Of a stretch of DNA of 64,000 nucleotides, positions 4,837-64,000 are shown in pieces (the first letter of the stretch is position 1; each line of letters opens with the position of its first letter). Location: NCBI GenBank assembly GCA_965223425.1, contig OZ245003.1, positions 1,632,001 to 1,696,000 on the forward strand, read 5' to 3'. The notes under the pieces were generated by a model. It saw only the letters and a list, made by a program, of their open reading frames with translations, was not told the DNA's origin and ran no database searches. A program made the position numbers and the translations under genes. This DNA comes from Nitrosopumilus sp. (GTDB lineage: Archaea > Thermoproteota > Nitrososphaeria > Nitrososphaerales > Nitrosopumilaceae).

Positions 4837-5694
4837 ATGTGCGCATATGGAATAATCATTCATGGCGGGGCAGGCGATTCGGACACTGATGATCCGCATG
4901 CAAAGGGGACAATGCAAAAAATTATCGACTCGTCATGTAAGATGCTGAGGGATGGCTGTTCTGCCGTCGATGTTGCAGAACATGCAGTATCAGAAATGGA
5001 GAACTCTGGAAAGTTCAACGCAGGAGCAGGGTCATGTCTCACAGAAAAGGGCACAATAGAGATGGATGCAGGTATTATGAACGGGGAGACCATGCAGTGC
5101 GGTGCAGTCGCAATAATCAACGGCGTGAAAAATCCAGTAATGGTGGCAAGGCAGGTAATGTCCGAATCCGAACACTCTCTAATTGCAGGAAATGGCGCAC
5201 TTGAATTTGCGCTGGCACACGGATTCTCAAAGTTTGAGATCGTGCCGAAAAAAACACAGATGGAAAAACTGGAAAAAATACTGATGCACAAATATGGAAC
5301 AGTCGGGGCAGTGGTGATTGATGCAAAATCAAACATAGTGTCAGCAGTATCTACTGGGGGGATATGGTCCAAGACCTGCGGCAGAATAGGGGATTCGGCA
5401 ATTGCAGGCTCTGGGTTTTATGCAAACAACAGTGCGGGAGGCGCCGTGGCAACAGGCGAGGGCGATGTAATAATAAAGTCATGTCTTACAAAAAACGTAT
5501 GCGACATGATGTATTCGGGGATATCCGTCCAGGAGGCCGCAGACATTGCAATCCATGATCTTGGGCGGCTTGGAGGAAAGGGCGGCGTCATTGCAGTGGG
5601 CAGAGATGGGAAAATTGGCGCCTCGTTTAACACAAAGACGATGCTTTTTGCACATGTGAGCGATGATGGCGCAGAAGAACCACCATCATTCTGA
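4837..5694 (+). CDS. Isoaspartyl peptidase / plant-type L-asparaginase (Ntn hydrolase)
   Basis: IHGGAG, FNAGAGS, EMDAGIM, GTVGAV (Thr nucleophile), GRIGDS, ATGEGD. Confidence 0.9.
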   Translation: MCAYGIIIHGGAGDSDTDDPHAKGTMQKIIDSSCKMLRDGCSAVDVAEHAVSEMENSGKFNAGAGSCLTEKGTIEMDAGIMNGETMQCGAVAIINGVKNPVMVARQVMSESEHSLIAGNGALEFALAHGFSKFEIVPKKTQMEKLEKILMHKYGTVGAVVIDAKSNIVSAVSTGGIWSKTCGRIGDSAIAGSGFYANNSAGGAVATGEGDVIIKSCLTKNVCDMMYSGISVQEAADIAIHDLGRLGGKGGVIAVGRDGKIGASFNTKTMLFAHVSDDGAEEPPSF

Positions 5695-5743
5695 AGGGCC
5701 GACTATTAGAAATTTATTTAAAGTCAAGCATCAAACATACTCC

Positions 5744-6568
5744 ATGTTAGAAATTCCTTCCAAATCGATTGATATTCCGCTTGAAGAGATAACGCTGGGC
5801 AAAAGTCAGGCAAGACAGAGAGACACAAAGGTTGACGAAGATGATGATTTGGTTCACAGCATCCGTAAAAATGGACTGATCACCCCGATAATTGTAAAAA
5901 AAATTGAAGATAGAAAATATGAGCTGCTGGTGGGACAGCGCAGATTCCGGGCTCACGAAATTCTAAAAAAATCCACAATTAGGGCCCAGGTTATGGAAAG
6001 GGACATCGATGAGTTTGAAGCCAAAAAGATTTCCCTGATTGAAAATGCGGCACGCAAAGACATGAAGCATGCAGATTATATGGACACCATTCAAATGTTT
6101 ATGGAAAAGTATAACGGAAGAGTGGCAACTGTTGCAGAAGAACTTGGACTGTCAACTGGTACTGTGAGCAAATATTTTTCAGTTAGCAATCTGCCAGAAA
6201 ATGTCAAGAGTAAGGTAAGAGAGAAAAAGATCAGTCCTGCAAACGCTATAAAGGCCCTCAATGCGCTGGGTGGCGAAGTTTCAGAAGTGAATGAAGATGA
6301 CCTGCTGGAAACTGCCGAAGAAATGCAAAAGCTATCTCCACAGTCCAGGAAAAAATTCGTAGAGATAAAGAAACATGAGGAGGGAATTTCCACAAGCAAA
6401 GCAGTGGAACAGGCAAAAAAACGAGTCGAATTACATCATGTTAGTTTAGATGCAACAGACGACCAGCTAATCAGAATAGAAAAATTCAAGGAGAAGGAAA
6501 GCATTGAAGAAACAGGTGACGCAGTGAGTGAATTAGTGGATCTTGGTTTGGATGCATCTGATGTCTGA
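5744..6568 (+). CDS. ParB/Srx-domain protein with HTH
   Basis: LVHSIRKNGLITPIIV, LLVGQRRFRA, ISLIENAARKD, then HTH; start chosen from TTTAAA at 5717. Confidence 0.85.
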   Translation: MLEIPSKSIDIPLEEITLGKSQARQRDTKVDEDDDLVHSIRKNGLITPIIVKKIEDRKYELLVGQRRFRAHEILKKSTIRAQVMERDIDEFEAKKISLIENAARKDMKHADYMDTIQMFMEKYNGRVATVAEELGLSTGTVSKYFSVSNLPENVKSKVREKKISPANAIKALNALGGEVSEVNEDDLLETAEEMQKLSPQSRKKFVEIKKHEEGISTSKAVEQAKKRVELHHVSLDATDDQLIRIEKFKEKESIEETGDAVSELVDLGLDASDV

Positions 6569-7305: not shown

Positions 7306-8346
7306 ATGAATGAAGACGAGCTTTTCTCCAAGGTAAAAATTACAAATGACGGTGCGATATGTTTGGGTGACTCTGTTGTCTGTGACGGGTTTGAGCGCGG
7401 CTATCACGCTGCCGTGTTTACACACATTCATTCAGACCACATATCTTCCAGCTTTGAGACATGCATGCACCAGTATGACGTGTATTCCTCAAAAATTACG
7501 GGGGACCTGCTTGAAGCCATGACTGAGGACACGTATCTCAAAAGAACGCAGTTTCATAGAATGGACTATGAAGAGGCCGAAATGATCAAGTGCAATGACA
7601 GGGGCGATTTTCTGACACTGATACAGTCAAGGCATATGCTGGGTTCAAGTCAGGTTTTTCTGGAAACACATGACAGATTAAAAATTATGTACTCTGGTGA
7701 CATTTCACCAGAAGACAGGCCGCGCAAATGTGACATTCTTGTCATTGATTCGACGCACGGCAATCCGCTTTTTGACAAAGTTATCAGCAGTGAAAGCCTG
7801 GAGCGAAGGCTCAATGATGTGGTAATCGAGGCAATAGACAAGAAAAGGCCAGTATGCATTCATGCGCACAGGGGAAAACTTCAGCACATCATGCACATGC
7901 TTTCAAAGGATGGTAACATTCCAAAAACCGTTCCATTTCTGTCCGAACACGTCGAAAACAAGATTGCATCCGTTTATGACAAAAACGAATGTAAAATTTC
8001 CAGGAAACTGTATGATATCAGTTCCTATGAGGGAAGCAAGATTATCGGCGATACGTACCCGTGGATAGAGTTCAGCTCGACCCCGCGCGAAAGCGAGAGG
8101 GAGAAGCGGGGCCAGATGCTGACTATCAGCATGATGGGAAGGTATGGTCAGGACACAATATCTCACAATGGCGCAAAGTGGTGGATTGCCTCAAACGAGC
8201 ATGCTGAATTTTCTGAGCTATTAGAGTATGTAAGGAATGCCGACCCGCACATTGTAGTCACTGACAACATGCGAACCAGAAACGGGGTTACACTGGCAAA
8301 GGAAATAAACAGCAAGTTGGGAATACCTGCAAGACCGATGCCGTAA
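7306..8346 (+). CDS. Metallo-beta-lactamase/beta-CASP fold nuclease
   Basis: FTHIHSDH, HMLGS, YSGDI, LVIDSTHG, NEHAEFSEL motifs. Confidence 0.8.
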   Translation: MNEDELFSKVKITNDGAICLGDSVVCDGFERGYHAAVFTHIHSDHISSSFETCMHQYDVYSSKITGDLLEAMTEDTYLKRTQFHRMDYEEAEMIKCNDRGDFLTLIQSRHMLGSSQVFLETHDRLKIMYSGDISPEDRPRKCDILVIDSTHGNPLFDKVISSESLERRLNDVVIEAIDKKRPVCIHAHRGKLQHIMHMLSKDGNIPKTVPFLSEHVENKIASVYDKNECKISRKLYDISSYEGSKIIGDTYPWIEFSSTPRESEREKRGQMLTISMMGRYGQDTISHNGAKWWIASNEHAEFSELLEYVRNADPHIVVTDNMRTRNGVTLAKEINSKLGIPARPMP

Positions 8347-54705: not shown

Positions 54706-54839
54706 ATCCACATCTCATGTACCGACAACGTTACAGAACCTCATGATCACCAGCTTGATATTTGCCTAGATAGATCTGTTTTGTTTTCAGGCGTACCGCA
54801 CATCGAAAATTAATATGTAAGAAAAAGAATCAAAGAATG

Positions 54840-54900
54840 AGGGCTCAGAGGTCGTCTCACTCATCACAGAGTCAGAAGTCGTTGGTCTCATCATTGCCCT
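54840..54900 (-). ncRNA. Box C/D guide sRNA (canonical)
   Basis: AGGGCA ATGATGA gaccaacgactt CTGA ctct GTGATGA gtgagacgacct CTGA GCCCT; terminal stem; T-rich tail. Confidence 0.85.
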
Positions 54901-54996
54901 CATTTCTGTTTGATTCGTCTTATCCCTATATAGATATAAACCAAATATAAAACTATCTCTATTAAGGTATAAATTACAGTGCCGTAATTATAGATT

Positions 54997-60170: not shown

Positions 60171-61015
60171 TTCTGCGCCTTTGTAAGCATCCCAAGCGCA
60201 TTTGAAAATACTGGGTCCCTTGCTATCTGGCACTTGTCGCGTATTGCCTCATTTTTTATCTCAGAGACAAGCTTTGGTATCAGTGCCCCGCCTCCGGCCA
60301 GAATCACAGGAAGTTCCGGAAAGTCAATGACTGTCTTTGTCAGGGAATCAGATATAGAGTCTGCAAGAAGCTTTCTGTACTGTGAGAGCTCCGGAGTGTC
60401 CTTTGCAAACAGGCTCTTCTCCTTGACGTATCCGGTCTTTGTGTCAGTTATTGCAGAGGTGATGTCTCCGACTCCGTGATCCAGTGTCAGGCCTGAGGCT
60501 ATCTTGCCATTGACTACTGCCATTATCTCAGTGGTTCCATGTCCGATGTGGCACACAATACCGTCCTCCAATCCCTGGTGGATGAGGGTGGCCCTTGCCT
60601 GGTATATGAGCCCAAAGAACTTTGGTCCAAGCGCCTTCATTACTGCCTCGCGAATCTTTTTGCTGTGGTCCCTTGCAGCATATGGGACTCCTGCAACGAT
60701 GACCATTTGTGCATACCTGCCAACGGCAGATGTCCTGGGGGTTCCGAGGATCTGGTCCATTGAGTATTTTATCAGGCTGATATAGTCCTCCATTATTGTT
60801 GGAATCCCGCGATATACGGGCCTCTTTAGTGTCATTGTTTTTATGGTTTCATATTTTGCAGCATCGTATCCGATGTGTGTCGTATCCTTGTTGTTTGACT
60901 CTAGCTCCAGGTGCCTGCCAGTGGCAATTAGTGACGGGAACTTTGTCAATCTGGTCGATGTTGCAATCTTTACAAAGCCGGTTCCAATGTCGAGTCCGGC
61001 AACATATTCACTCAT
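60161..61015 (-). CDS. ParM/StbA-like actin ATPase
   Basis: GLDIGTGFVK, CHIGHGTTE, ILAGGGA, FSNALG. Confidence 0.8.
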   Translation of the reverse strand: MSEYVAGLDIGTGFVKIATSTRLTKFPSLIATGRHLELESNNKDTTHIGYDAAKYETIKTMTLKRPVYRGIPTIMEDYISLIKYSMDQILGTPRTSAVGRYAQMVIVAGVPYAARDHSKKIREAVMKALGPKFFGLIYQARATLIHQGLEDGIVCHIGHGTTEIMAVVNGKIASGLTLDHGVGDITSAITDTKTGYVKEKSLFAKDTPELSQYRKLLADSISDSLTKTVIDFPELPVILAGGGALIPKLVSEIKNEAIRDKCQIARDPVFSNALGMLTKAQKWH

Positions 61016-61056: not shown

Positions 61057-61292
61057 CGTTTCAAAAAAGTGAAACGCCGTTTCACTTTTCCGACGGTTTT
61101 GAATTCGGGGTACTTTTTCCTGAAAAACGGAGATAAAAAAAGGTACTCAATACAACACACATATACAATATAAACAAACAACAAAAAACATCTAAAATAC
61201 AACAACGGCAATCGATAAGGAGAAATCCCAATTAATTATTCCAAATTTTACAAAGTGCGAAAAAATCGCGAATGTTTCACTTTTTTGAAACG
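61057..61292. repeat. 19-bp inverted repeat pair (operator/centromere-like)
   Basis: CGTTTCAAAAAAGTGAAAC (61057-61075) and its reverse complement (61274-61292); extra half-site at 61078-61090. Confidence 0.75.
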
Positions 61293-61443
61293 CTTTCTGG
61301 CCAGAATTTCACAGTATGTGATCGTAAATAATTAGAAAGAAAAAGAAAACAAAAAATTCAGAGCAACCAAAAAAATCAGACACCAATCCAAAATCATTTC
61401 AAAAAAATCATTACACCAAAACAGAATCAAGATAATAAAAAGA

Positions 61444-61507
61444 AGGGCCATGATGAGACTCCATTCATTCTGACATCAATATGATGACAGAGATCAGTCT
61501 GAGCCCT
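61444..61507 (+). ncRNA. Box C/D guide sRNA (canonical)
   Basis: AGGGCC ATGATGA gactccattcatt CTGA catcaat ATGATGA cagagatcagt CTGA GCCCT. Confidence 0.85.
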
Positions 61508-61590
61508 CAAATTCAATCTAACTGACTTCAATAAAAATCAGACCATACCAAACCAACCACTCATTCCAAGAAAATCAAGATAATAAAAAA

Positions 61591-61654
61591 AGGGCGGTGA
61601 TGAGTTCCATTCATTCTGTCATCATTATGATGATAAACCCCCAGTCCTGGCCCC
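61591..61654 (+). ncRNA. Degenerate box C/D sRNA copy
   Basis: AGGGCG GTGATGA gttccattcatt CTGT catcatt ATGATGA taaacccccagtc CTG GCCC. Confidence 0.55.
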
Positions 61655-61696
61655 CATTCCCCAGCAACACATACCAATTAAAACATTCAAAAAGAA

Positions 61697-61794
61697 AAAC
61701 ATCCTGATGAGCCCTTTTGGGCCAACTCCAATCAGAACATAACTGGTTTGGATGAGCCCTACTAGGGCGAAACTGCCATTGGCAGTCGATGTTT
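61697..61794 (+). ncRNA. Type I hammerhead ribozyme 1
   Basis: Stem I AAACATC/GATGTTT, CTGATGA, stem II GCCCT..AGGGC, GAAA, stem III CTGCC-ATT-GGCAG, GTC cleavage after 61787. Confidence 0.85.
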
Positions 61795-62136
61795 CGCAAA
61801 ATACTTTCGCGAGTATCTGGTGGCGAAAAGCTGCCAACAATCAGAAAGGGCACTAAAGAGTATGCCCTAAGAATATTCCTTCGAGGGGGATATGTTCTCC
61901 GTGATGGTTCACGATTGGTATGTTTGCCCACTTGTTATTGGGATCACAAACTAGACCGGCCATACATGGAATGGTTTGAAATAAGCCGAGACGGCACTCT
62001 AACATATTACAGACTAAAGGATTCTGTAAAGGCTGTTGCCGAGTGCAAGGTTGAATCAAATTATGGGTTCATACCAAAAGCCACATACCCTCGTGTCATG
62101 AAGGCCTGTCGGGCTCCATGCAACTCTGGTTGTTAA
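61789..62136 (+). CDS. Small hypothetical protein directly after hammerhead 1
   Basis: MFRKILSRVSGG..; AUG one nt after the predicted cleavage site. Confidence 0.6.
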   Translation: MFRKILSRVSGGEKLPTIRKGTKEYALRIFLRGGYVLRDGSRLVCLPTCYWDHKLDRPYMEWFEISRDGTLTYYRLKDSVKAVAECKVESNYGFIPKATYPRVMKACRAPCNSGC

Positions 62137-62210
62137 CTGATAATTCCTCTCACGAGGAATATCTTCCCCTTTTTATTAAACTGTAAATTTACAGCATGCC
62201 AAACCGGCAT
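62134..62210 (+). repeat. Conserved 3' box of the cassette (second copy at 62589-62670)
   Basis: ATTCCTC/GAGGAAT hairpin, T-run, ATGCC/GGCAT hairpin in both copies. Confidence 0.8.
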
Positions 62211-62234
62211 TCCAATGAAAACTTTCAAAAAGAA

Positions 62235-62332
62235 AAACATCCTGATGAGCCCTTTTGGGCCAACTCCAATCAGAACATAACTGGTTTGGATGAGCCCTGC
62301 TAGGGCGAAACTGCCATTGGCAGTCGATGTTT
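62235..62332 (+). ncRNA. Type I hammerhead ribozyme 2
   Basis: Identical to copy 1 except one stem-II base; cleavage after 62325; 538 nt period. Confidence 0.85.
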
Positions 62333-62560
62333 CGCAAAATACTTTCGCGAGTATCTGGTGGCAAAAAGCCACAAACCAAAGAGTGTCCAGATAACATTGT
62401 CTGCATGGAAGACGAAAGAATCGGATACATCGAACGTGACGGTTCGCGGTTGGAACGTTATCCATGGAGATGTCAGCAGGAAGACTACGATAAAGGTTAT
62501 CCAGAACTGAAATGGGCCAACCTCCGGTTAGACAAAGCAGCTTGCAGAGAAGCAAGTTGA
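62327..62560 (+). CDS. Small hypothetical protein directly after hammerhead 2
   Basis: Same first 12 aa as the 61789 ORF, then largely divergent. Confidence 0.55.
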   Translation: MFRKILSRVSGGKKPQTKECPDNIVCMEDERIGYIERDGSRLERYPWRCQQEDYDKGYPELKWANLRLDKAACREAS

Positions 62561-63134
62561 CTCAGAGTCTTCATACGTCTTTGGTTACTAACTGATAATT
62601 CCTCTCATGAGGAATATCTTCCCCTTTTTTATTAAACAGAAACTAATTTTACAGCATGCCAAACCGGCATCCATAAATCATTCTTGAAAATATAACATCA
62701 AATCAAACACGGCAATCGCACAGAGACATGCAGATGAGCTTTTTTATTATCATAATTTTATCAATTCAACATCATATTGGGCCAGTGTCCCAATTTACAA
62801 AGGCAAATTTCAGAAAATTTCACGCCATTGCTTCCTTATTATGATGAGCAAGAAAAAAACACCCTATTATCCGCGCATCAAGCGAGAATTTGAGCCCGAC
62901 CCGGAAGACAAGGAAATCTGGTAGGCGCTCATGCCCCTTTTTTTCTATAACATCCATTTGATTGTTTTATCATTATGTACATGCGTTCCGGCATGTCTTT
63001 ATGAAATTGTAATGATGACTGGCACGGGGCGTATGGAATCGCCTGAGTTTCGGACTGTGATGAAACAGTTTGAGCAAAGTCCACACGAGTGCCCACATTC
63101 AATTCATGAAACAGCGAAAGCTTGACCAAGAAAA

Positions 63135-63186
63135 CCATGCCGATGTGCTCTACTTGAGCGAAACAGCCCTTTGTGGCAGTCCATGG
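63135..63186 (+). ncRNA. Divergent/degenerate type I hammerhead 3
   Basis: CCATG CCGATGT GCTC-tactt-GAGC GAAA CAGCC..GGCAG TC CATGG; two core deviations and one stem III mismatch. Confidence 0.55.
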
Positions 63187-63596
63187 AAAGAACCATGACA
63201 AAGAAAGTCAAATTTCTTAAAAGGAGACTTGCCTGTTCCTTGCGTATAGAAAACATCTCTTATCGACTGATGTTTGATTGCGGTCCAATAGGAAGACCAT
63301 ATTCTGCAATCGTTTATCAGCTGATGTTTGATTGCGGTCCAATAGGAAGACCATATTCTATAATCGTGAGTCTAGTCAACAAGCTTCTCAGAAAAGAAAG
63401 ACTCTATCCTAACGACTACGACAGTCCGGATTTTCCTGCATGCTGCAGAAAAACGATTGTTGGGTTGGAAAATACCAGTAGTATTAAGGGCAGCGCATTT
63501 CCTCACAGATGCAAGACCTGCAATAGGGAGTGGCAATACTACTTTGGATATGTGTTGCATAGTAGCCTATTTGGAGAACAGCCAATATGGGACTGA
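63183..63596 (+). CDS. Small Cys-rich protein directly after hammerhead 3
   Basis: ATG 63183 one nt after the GTC site; CC..CxxC; internal 18-aa duplication. Confidence 0.55.
   Translation: MERTMTKKVKFLKRRLACSLRIENISYRLMFDCGPIGRPYSAIVYQLMFDCGPIGRPYSIIVSLVNKLLRKERLYPNDYDSPDFPACCRKTIVGLENTSSIKGSAFPHRCKTCNREWQYYFGYVLHSSLFGEQPIWD
63260..63367 (+). repeat. 54-bp in-frame tandem duplication
   Basis: YRLMFDCGPIGRPYSAIV / YQLMFDCGPIGRPYSIIV. Confidence 0.9.
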
Positions 63597-63727
63597 CCCC
63601 CACTCTTTTTTTCTAATCATATTTTCTTAATTTTAGACACACAACACCTGCAAATAATCAACACATACTTTTTGATTATTTCATTAATGCGGCAAGGCAT
63701 CACCTCTTGCTGTTTTGTAATTCCAAC

Positions 63728-63790
63728 GGGGGCCATGATGAGACAGAACAGTTCCGACTCTGTGATGAGTGAGACGACATCCGAGTCCTC
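63728..63790 (+). ncRNA. Box C/D sRNA with CCGA D/D' boxes
   Basis: GGGGGCC ATGATGA gacagaacagtt CCGA ctct GTGATGA gtgagacgacat CCGA GTCC. Confidence 0.7.
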
Positions 63791-63867
63791 ATTGTCAGTA
63801 ACTGTATCATTGATTTTAACCTTGGTGCCACTCTGTACAGTCTTGCACCGCTTTGAAAAAATCCAAC

Positions 63868-63981
63868 GGGGGCGATGATGAATAAAATTATGGCCCAATC
63901 TCATGATGAGACACAACAGTTCCACTCCTGGAATCCACCTCCTCCTAGAAGGTTCTGTGACAGGCCGCTATCTGAGCCCCC
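63868..63981 (+). ncRNA. Degenerate/extended box C/D sRNA
   Basis: Same TCCAACGGGGGC leader, ATGATGA at 63875 and 63903, terminal CTGA GCCCCC. Confidence 0.45.
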
Positions 63982-64000
63982 ATCAATCATACAAATTAGA

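Follow-up and report, generated by a model that had tools for sequence, protein, structure and literature searches.

Hammerhead (HH) ribozymes are common in mobile DNA, and their role there is mostly unclear. In this study, we analyzed an array of small gene cassettes, headed by HH motifs and interleaved with C/D-box-family small RNA (sRNA) elements, at the end of a 64,000-nt stretch of a Nitrosopumilus sp. genome. This stretch, referred to as the window, corresponds to C1:1632001-1696000 (C1 being contig OZ245003.1) of a 2.64-Mb, 41% G+C archaeal genome in two contigs, and positions are those of the window unless a contig or locus is named. At least three hammerheads have been recorded in Archaea, and many bacterial ones lie near integrases and prophages (Perreault et al. 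2011, PMC3088659). In that article's account of tandem arrays, tandem prophage hammerheads cleave in vitro within polycistronic transcripts of about 2 kb, and cleavage is proposed to cut the longer RNA into gene-sized pieces, a likeness to what we propose below. The present array is also similar in that several hammerheads on one strand flank small mobile-element genes with restriction or anti-restriction neighbours, and it differs in its archaeal host, the type I form of all motifs, the predicted cut 1 nt before AUG, the upstream C/D sRNAs, and the T-runs between units.

The same article describes a hammerhead variant (HHphage) of the haloviruses HF1/HF2, located before the start codon of a helicase gene; a transcript end was mapped at most 3 nt from the cut. 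As here, an archaeal mobile element carries a hammerhead just before a start codon; however, HHphage keeps a distance of 13 nt and has a core insertion, whereas the present motifs have a distance of 1 nt and a start codon within stem I, and their host is apparently not a halophile. Type I hammerheads have also been described in viral 5' untranslated regions, where translation depends on their cleavage (López-Galiano et al. 2026, PMC13725137). These motifs likewise stand at the 5' edge of open reading frames (ORFs) and tie cleavage to translation start, which is predicted for the present array, although the viruses as that article presents them are eukaryotic (fungal and plant) RNA viruses with cap-independent initiation, whereas here an archaeal DNA island probably uses leaderless initiation. 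Compared with archaeal C/D sRNAs, which guide 2'-O-methylation, one element of the array (sRNA1) matches in box order, spacings, and terminal stem, and one guide pairs at 11 of 12 positions with the large-subunit (LSU) rRNA; unlike usual archaeal C/D sRNAs, three of the four copies are degenerate, most guides are targetless, and the copies are located on a mobile island directly 5' of ribozymes. RiboJ is a synthetic insulator in which a self-cleaving ribozyme between promoter and gene provides a context-independent 5' end; it is engineered, and the present array would be its natural counterpart. Integron arrays, as described for Archaea and other hosts (PMC9668308), also consist of one-directional, short, mostly single-gene cassettes with a recurring structured element in mobile DNA, but here the element, either an HH or a pseudoknotted motif termed X, is on the 5' side of each gene. 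A full-text literature search returned nothing linking hammerhead or self-cleaving ribozymes to Thaumarchaeota or Nitrosopumilus. What is new here is the setting in an archaeal chromosomal island, the start codon in stem I, the presumed leaderless outcome, and the conserved coupling with C/D sRNAs.

Three type I HH motifs were identified in the window and a fourth immediately beyond it, all on the + strand.

61697-61794, + strand: HH1, stem I AAACAUC/GAUGUUU and stem III CUGCC/GGCAG, predicted cut after C61787
62235-62332, + strand: HH2, duplicate of HH1, predicted cut after C62325
63135-63186, + strand: HH3, compact and HH-like, A-A mismatch in stem III, predicted cut after C63181
from window-equivalent 64003, beyond the window, + strand: HH4, preceding a staphylococcal nuclease (SNase)-like gene (both within L012:4003-4714)

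The elements are composed, in this order, of the stem I 5' strand, CUGAUGA, capped stem II, GAAA, capped stem III, (G/C)UC, and the stem I 3' strand; type I is defined by three helices around a junction, of which the first is open and the other two are capped. A loose regular expression matched 40 sites in the genome, only four of which (at 61704, 62242, 63140, and 64007) had HH stems by inspection, and a tighter pattern of the core gave three matches in the window versus 0.00 expected from 100 shuffles. All four credible hammerheads of the genome are located within 2.4 kb (61.7-64.05 kb), each abutting an ORF. HH1 and HH2 belong to a 169-nt duplicate with 95-97% identity, and their stem II contains a 45-nt rod-like insertion, an apparent partial duplication of a GAUGAGCCC...GGGC segment. 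The minimum free energy (MFE) fold of HH1 is a three-way junction onto which the long rod closes (z=-4.9); the fold of HH3 is only partly HH-like (z=-0.9).

Hammerheads of this kind are shared by a few relatives. When 401 family genomes were searched with a pattern, four matched, namely the window's own, G322, G353, and G012; inspection by eye revealed no HH stems in the G012 match, which was discarded. A covariance model made from six copies was then run on 151 genomes of the genus and found hammerheads in five: the window's own (four copies), G322 (one), G353 (one), G449 (two), and G452 (two). Additional copies were found in loci L103 and L108, two contigs of one separately filed record resembling G452. 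A species-wide pattern scan gave 14 loci, with strong model matches only in Nitrosopumilus sp. records and two others, a duplicate of the G452 type in a record titled 'bacterium' and a bacterial hammerhead (L106); a Thermoplasmata match scored 28.5 bits and lies within ORF-like sequence.

The fold is supported by covariation among 14 hits (12 distinct) from six genomes, in an alignment fitted to the model. In the 12 distinct copies, 91.2% of cells were paired, compared with 22-34% when partners were slid, compensatory changes on both sides were present in 9 of 17 pairs, and the covariation score was reached by none of 500 shuffles. When six copies were aligned earlier with MAFFT, 93.9% of cells were paired and 7 of 17 pairs changed on both sides; the MFE fold was a three-way junction in six of seven copies tested. 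Stem II occurred as GCCC/GGGC, GCUC/GAGC, GGGA/UCCC, or GGAA/UUCC, and stem III as CUGCC/GGCAG, CUC/GAG, GUGC/GCAC, or GCGC/GCGC. HH1, HH2, and every copy of G322, G353, G449, G452, and L103 have the canonical CUGAUGA and GAAA; the unpaired core and the A15.1-U16.1 pair are invariant across the copies of the relatives, and the cleavage triplet is GUC or CUC (N-U-H) in all 12 distinct copies. Genuine hammerheads, at least for the copies with a canonical core, are the best-supported reading of these motifs.

In each of the 12 distinct copies, a single base lies between the predicted cut and AUG. This base (G, C, or U) covaries with its partner in stem I, and AUG never varies. The start codon is within the 3' strand of stem I in every copy, and therefore cleavage would leave an mRNA beginning one base before AUG. 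The preliminary description of the locus had the ribozymes process a polycistronic transcript of guide RNAs and microproteins; since the cut position is fixed relative to AUG and not to the sRNA 3' end, the ribozyme looks built more for the 5' end of an mRNA than for the maturation of a guide RNA. Leaderless messages have a clear signature in this genome, in which TATA-like hexamers start at -31 to -27 from ATG in 121 of 891 long ORFs, while a second, separate Shine-Dalgarno-like peak is present at -14 to -11. We consider it slightly more probable than the opposite that self-cleavage releases leaderless mRNAs from precursors containing sRNAs or leaders.

The ORFs of the array are as follows.

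61789-62136, + strand: ORF1, 115 aa, AUG 1 nt after the HH1 cut
62327-62560, + strand: ORF2, 77 aa, AUG 1 nt after the HH2 cut
62841-62924, + strand: putative coding ORF of 27 aa, unit without a hammerhead, no Pfam match
63183-63596, + strand: ORF3, 137 aa, internal 54-nt tandem duplication at 63255-63362
behind HH4 within L012:4003-4714, + strand: ORF4, 221 aa, N-terminal hydrophobic stretch and staphylococcal-nuclease domain

ORF4 matched PF00565 with 35.4 bits (cut-off 21). The products had been described as microproteins, which does not fit all of them, as shown by this 221-aa SNase homologue. ORF1 and ORF2 are paralogues (40% identity over 70 aa) with a common GY-x-RDGSRL motif. In the relatives, the HH-led ORFs are nuclease orthologues in G322 and G353 and shortened versions in G449; in G452, one HH AUG opens a 61-aa hydrophobic protein.

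Four C/D-box-family sRNA-like elements were located on the same strand, two on either side of the first three hammerheads.

61445-61506, + strand: sRNA1, canonical C, D', C', and D boxes with terminal stem, strict pattern match
61592-61655, + strand: sRNA2, degenerate D' (CUGU) and D (CUGG)
63728-63790, + strand: sRNA3, C and C' intact, D' and D degenerate, without terminal stem, 17 bits with Rfam sR2
63868-63981, + strand: sRNA4, 113-nt chimera with C and D boxes and a GGGGGC/GCCCCC stem

The layout of sRNA1 is GGGCC-AUGAUGA-13 nt-CUGA-8 nt-UGAUGA-11 nt-CUGA-GCCC, and sRNA4 holds an inserted copy of the 5' half of sRNA3 (repeat family D11). A strict C/D pattern had three matches in the genome, two of them in the window, and none in the reversed-sequence control; a relaxed search requiring a terminal stem gave nine candidates genome-wide versus none in the control. 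About ten elements of the genome carry the family signature, GGGC-N-RUGAUGA ... CUGAGCCC(U/C)CA; five of them are at 54.8-64 kb of the window, and the 5' half of the signature had 20 matches genome-wide versus 2 in the control. Matches to Rfam snoRNA models, of which the archaeal ones derive from other lineages, did not reach the gathering level in the window (best SNORD60, 27.8 bits versus 42, on sRNA1).

The order of elements on the + strand (two sRNAs, two HH-ORF pairs, a C/D-like motif, a further HH-ORF pair, and two sRNAs), as first proposed, was confirmed by sequence reading with one exception. The motif at 63012-63063 (+ strand) was rejected as an sRNA: its two C-box-like heptamers and single CUGA are accompanied by neither a properly spaced D box nor a terminal stem, and its best Rfam match was SNORD110 (18 bits, E=3.9). 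The duplicated leaders also stood, as repeat families D9 (61420-61446 versus 61568-61594, 85%) and D4 (63719-63741 versus 63859-63881, 91%).

The physical linkage of the two RNA classes was likewise borne out, with a C/D-family sRNA 46-55 nt 5' of an HH in G353, G449, and G452.

HH1: sRNA2 upstream, gap 41 nt
HH4: sRNA4 upstream, gap 21 nt
G353 HH: canonical sRNA upstream, gap 46 nt
G449 HH copy a: canonical sRNA upstream, gap 47 nt
G449 HH copy b: sRNA with a decayed C box upstream, gap similar to that of copy a
G452/L103 HH copy b: 100-nt C/D-like element upstream, gap 55 nt

No sRNA is located upstream of HH2, HH3, the G322 HH (abutted by a transposase-looking ORF, as judged by eye), or G452 copy a. 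The synteny of sRNA, HH, and nuclease gene was found in G353, G449, G452/L103, and the window's own genome. Co-occurrence in relatives, suggested earlier as a check, showed the two classes to be linked elsewhere, since the order sRNA, 23-55 nt, HH, AUG recurs in congeneric genomes; this goes against the refutation proposed earlier, in which the two are never linked elsewhere.

The T-runs of the + strand divide this order into units. Runs of at least five T are present at 61281, 62170, 62625, 62740, 62938, 63606, 63669, and 64746, with one behind each ORF, usually preceded by C-rich sequence, and with none within 61287-62169 or 63674-64745 or between an sRNA and its HH.

62170-62174, + strand: CCCC and T5 after ORF1, likely archaeal terminator, preceded by the hairpin AUUCCUC-n-GAGGAAU
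62184-62210, + strand: promoter-like box TAAATTTACA with a GCATGCC...GGCAT hairpin, 50 nt 5' of HH2, repeated at 62644-62670 (repeat family D8)
62625-62630, + strand: T6 after ORF2
62938-62944, + strand: T7 after the 27-aa ORF
63606-63612, + strand: T7 after ORF3

Because T-runs follow each ORF and never split an sRNA from its HH, the array appears to consist of about five short units, namely [sRNA1, sRNA2, HH1, ORF1], [HH2, ORF2], [27-aa ORF], [HH3, ORF3], and [sRNA3, sRNA4, HH4, nuclease gene], and the single long polycistron envisaged in the preliminary description is unlikely, given a C-rich stretch and a T5-T7 run after every ORF. The distance of the TAAATTTACA box appears to fit the TATA-to-start spacing of the genome (about 29 nt). 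An AAWTTTACA box was found at 61244, 62184, and 62644, and a similar box about 37-40 nt before the sRNAs of G353 and G449. Growth of the array by duplication and recombination, also proposed earlier, is evident from the 169-nt HH1/HH2 duplicate, the ORF1/ORF2 paralogy, the 54-nt duplication in ORF3, and the chimeric sRNA4. A 61-nt 3' module of ORF1 is repeated after ORF2 (repeat family D2).

The release of leaderless mRNAs by self-cleavage builds on the directly observed anatomy, covariation, conserved synteny, AUG placement, T-run layout, and leaderless signature; actual cleavage, co-transcription, and benefit we infer from the sequence. The stretch would form the beginning of an array of cassettes on an integrated, conjugative-plasmid-like island, and each HH cassette would follow one plan, consisting of a leader or sRNA, a type I HH, an AUG-led ORF, and a C-rich stretch with an oligo-T terminator. 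Cleavage after (G/C)UC would produce a leaderless message with a 5'-OH end and a single base before AUG, in a host that would be using leaderless messages widely. Where an sRNA is located 23-55 nt upstream with no T-run between, sRNA and mRNA would be made in one precursor, which may apply to sRNA1-sRNA2-HH1-ORF1 and to sRNA3-sRNA4-HH4-nuclease gene. The ribozyme would divide this precursor in two, and the sRNA part could then be trimmed and protected by k-turn proteins. The benefit may be a defined 5' end, independent of context, for mobile cassettes.

Several observations weigh against this reading. The HH family is narrow, being found in 5 of the 151 genus genomes and in none of 80 metagenomic nuclease-homologue loci (the best 80 of 183 tblastn-confirmed nuclease relatives). 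ORF1 and ORF3 had no homologues elsewhere in protein database searches (ORF3 matched only itself), and in G452 the AUG behind the other HH opens just 11 codons, with the nuclease ATG 38 nt further. Regarding the sRNAs, the boxes of sRNA2, sRNA3, and sRNA4 are degenerate, 22 of 23 guide entries had no significant rRNA or tRNA match, and G353 and G449 have an AATATAA box between the sRNA and the HH; if this box is a promoter, transcription would start inside the ribozyme. Regarding the ribozymes, the core is CCGAUGU (U4C, A9U) in HH3 and CUGAUGU (A9U) in HH4, and the section on core variants in PMC3088659 mentions no A9 variant. The 45-nt insertion in HH1 and HH2 contains two GCCC...GGGC hairpins that may form in competition with the active fold. 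With 4-7 bp, stem I is short, and neither a loop-loop contact nor a pseudoknot linking it to stem II was identified. Rfam HH models remained below threshold, with zero gathering-level matches in the window; the best scores were 20 bits versus 56.3 for RAGATH-1-hammerhead (HH1) and 18.8 versus 52 for Hammerhead_HH9 (HH4). A lookup of the array among sequencing sets returned no RNA set and five DNA-type contig sets (four with 0.93-0.96 of its words and one with 0.21).

The points on the sRNAs bear on the first alternative, which we hold to be somewhat unlikely: the sRNA-like elements would be decaying paralogues or recombination scars of chromosomal C/D genes, each HH would act only on a short leader transcribed from its own promoter, and adjacency would come from shared cassette scaffolds and repeated recombination instead of co-processing. 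Such independent units would agree with HH2, which has the TAAATTTACA box 50 nt upstream and no sRNA, and with the AATATAA box of G353 and G449. They would also agree with sRNA1 and sRNA2, which lack the TATA-like box of the chromosomal genes, with the degenerate boxes of sRNA2-4 and the chimeric sRNA4, with the targetless guides, and with the 234-nt repeat units of G353, which combine an sRNA copy and a nuclease fragment. However, three diverged lineages preserve the sRNA-HH spacing (23-55 nt), the common strand, and the lack of intervening T-runs, and the sRNA copies of G353 and G449 are fully canonical.

The points on the ribozymes bear on a second alternative, in which HH-shaped elements do not cleave in vivo, either because stem I hides the start codon to control translation or stability or because the elements are relics. 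The location of AUG within stem I in every copy fits this view, as do the core changes of HH3 and HH4, the sub-threshold Rfam scores, and the short stem I without an identified tertiary contact. We regard this view as improbable, since CUGAUGA, GAAA, and A15.1-U16.1 are invariant in the relatives and a simple occluding hairpin would not need them. Finally, it is highly improbable that the RNA between two hammerheads is cut out, with 5'-OH and 2',3'-cyclic phosphate ends, and circularised by an RtcB-type ligase to give circles with sRNAs or ORFs, as in retrozymes and viroid-like RNAs: hammerheads stand in tandem on one strand 538-900 nt apart here and 512 nt apart in G452, and archaeal C/D sRNAs are known to occur as circles, but terminator-like T-runs lie between successive hammerheads.

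The guides were compared with the rRNAs and tRNAs of the genome as 23 entries (16, one of which repeats the sRNA2 guide, plus 7). The D' guide of sRNA2, GUUCCAUUCAUU, pairs at 11 of 12 positions with LSU rRNA position 2062 (shuffled-guide fraction 0.01-0.02), and it is common to sRNA2 and a chromosomal sRNA at C1:1832561. All other entries had shuffled-guide fractions of at least 0.15 against rRNA and tRNA, and neither guide of sRNA1 had a significant rRNA or tRNA target. The 54-nt repeat at C1:1606628 was rejected as a guide target, as its exact 12-nt match is one chance 12-mer match multiplied by nine copies.

The chromosomal sRNAs of the family have GAATCAA 17 nt upstream (5') and a TATA-like box further upstream, which is probably a dedicated sRNA promoter architecture. 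The sRNAs preceded by GAATCAA are the following.

C1:648335, - strand
C1:917179, + strand
C1:1832561, + strand
window 54888, - strand

sRNA1 and sRNA2 retain GAATCAA without an upstream TATA-like box. The element on the - strand of the window is a further canonical C/D sRNA.

54838-54901, - strand: strict C/D match with an 8-bp terminal stem, GAATCAA upstream

Its D guide resembles that of sRNA3, and the two elements share about 21 nt of their 3' halves in opposite orientation. This pair brackets the MmeI, Cas3-HD-like, and actin-like genes and could be a substrate for recombination or inversion. The use of sRNA copies as integration (att) sites of the island was set aside; the chromosomal paralogue is 137 kb away. 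In G353, a 234-nt tandem repeat of about four units (L006:1587-2357) is located upstream of the hammerhead. Every unit combines a fragment from the nuclease gene with a C/D sRNA copy, in which the D' guide is constant and the D guide differs per copy.

The array continues past the window, as had been expected. When the downstream sequence was examined, HH4 and the SNase-like gene (64003-64714) were followed by 11 cassettes, up to about 70.7 kb, headed by the approximately 80-nt motif X. These X copies are on the + strand at window-equivalent 64792-70723 (L012:4792-10723), and the genome has 15 copies in all.

C1:1430060-1430751, - strand, and C1:1888524-1889190, + strand: the other X copies, four in all

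X reads (G/U)UGAC ... CCAAAC ... GAC ... GGGUGUGGG and heads successive small cassettes, usually after a T-run and with an ORF 10-45 nt downstream, often with GGAGG. An odd tRNA-like gene, whose variable arm is long, directly follows some copies (Rfam tRNA, 59.6 and 56.1 bits).

L012:4869-4954: tRNA-like gene immediately after X, GAU anticodon, 'Ile' by ARAGORN
L012:6003-6090: tRNA-like gene immediately after X, GAU anticodon, 'Ile' by ARAGORN
L012 near 5674-5756 and 7384-7466: partial tRNA-like copies, shortened, rearranged, and repeated in the array

All 11 X variants first examined have an outer and an inner helix plus a variable hairpin, with a loop segment that pairs with the 5' tail. In 49 distinct copies, 92.5% of cells were paired versus 32-45% with slid partners. 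The pseudoknot helix, which was outside the search model, was 97.8% paired, with three pairs covarying in 21-22 sequences, and the G-U pairs fit the + strand only. X had no Rfam match. It was found in 20 of the 151 genus genomes, in arrays of up to 23 copies, and, across the family, in 5 of 27 genera and 11 of 151 sampled genomes including the window's own. A hepatitis delta virus (HDV)-like ribozyme was rejected because the helix order differs. An attC site was rejected as well: inspection of the 49 copies, whose ends read (G/U)UGAC ... GUGUGGG, revealed no R''/R' boxes (RYYYAAC ... GTTRRRY), and the pseudoknot helix has no attC counterpart; the IntI integrase was not searched for.

In G353, X occurs on both sides of the HH-nuclease cassette, and in G359, X with a Shine-Dalgarno sequence takes the place of the sRNA-HH leader before the orthologous nuclease gene. 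Because X replaces the HH leader in G359, X and HH appear to be alternative heads of the same kind of cassette, and X is therefore a candidate processing element or ribozyme, which we offer as a lead.

Most of the window appears to be an integrated conjugative or plasmid-like island rich in defence genes, according to gene annotation by domain matches, and the G+C content of positions 1-54000 ranges from 0.36 to 0.52 around a genome mean of 0.41.

1-54000: Dnd-like (phosphorothioation) genes, with PAPS_reduct, AAA_23/SMC, and class-V aminotransferase
1-54000: at least four restriction-modification-type genes
within the window: Eco57I-like, C5-methylase, EcoRII-C, and MmeI-type restriction-modification genes
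1-54000: DDE transposase
within the window: conjugation-type ATPases, a VirB11-type ATPase and a TraG/VirB4-like P-loop protein
within the window: partition genes, two ParB-like and a ParM/actin-like gene ending at 61015
within the window: Cas3-HD, weak match only

G353 has a TraG-like homologue (49% identity) at a distance of 22 kb from its hammerhead. The arms of a perfect 19-nt inverted repeat (CGTTTCAAAAAAGTGAAAC and its complement) occupy 61057-61075 and 61274-61292, 198 nt apart, within the A-rich spacer that separates the actin-like gene from sRNA1. About 25 kb upstream of the window, at C1:1606570-1607075, a perfect 54-nt tandem repeat of about nine copies adjoins the 5' side of a large ORF and resembles iterons or an origin-type repeat of a mobile element.

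The placement of the HH motifs points to a direct function, the production of leaderless messages by ribozymes. If this is true, the array would be a natural case of guide-RNA and protein genes sharing a precursor that is split by a ribozyme. Additionally, X, which came to light as a neighbour of hammerheads, is a candidate new class of structured RNA, and searches based on association with hammerheads have earlier led to new ribozyme classes. More speculatively, and in our view rather unlikely as a whole, the HH cassettes may be the minority form of a family-wide archaeal system in which an RNA-processing element heads each small gene and some tRNA-like genes, the majority X would be a new self-cleaving ribozyme class or an endonuclease handle, and both would act as natural insulators. 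If so, HH and X would let mobile cassettes be expressed from any upstream transcript.

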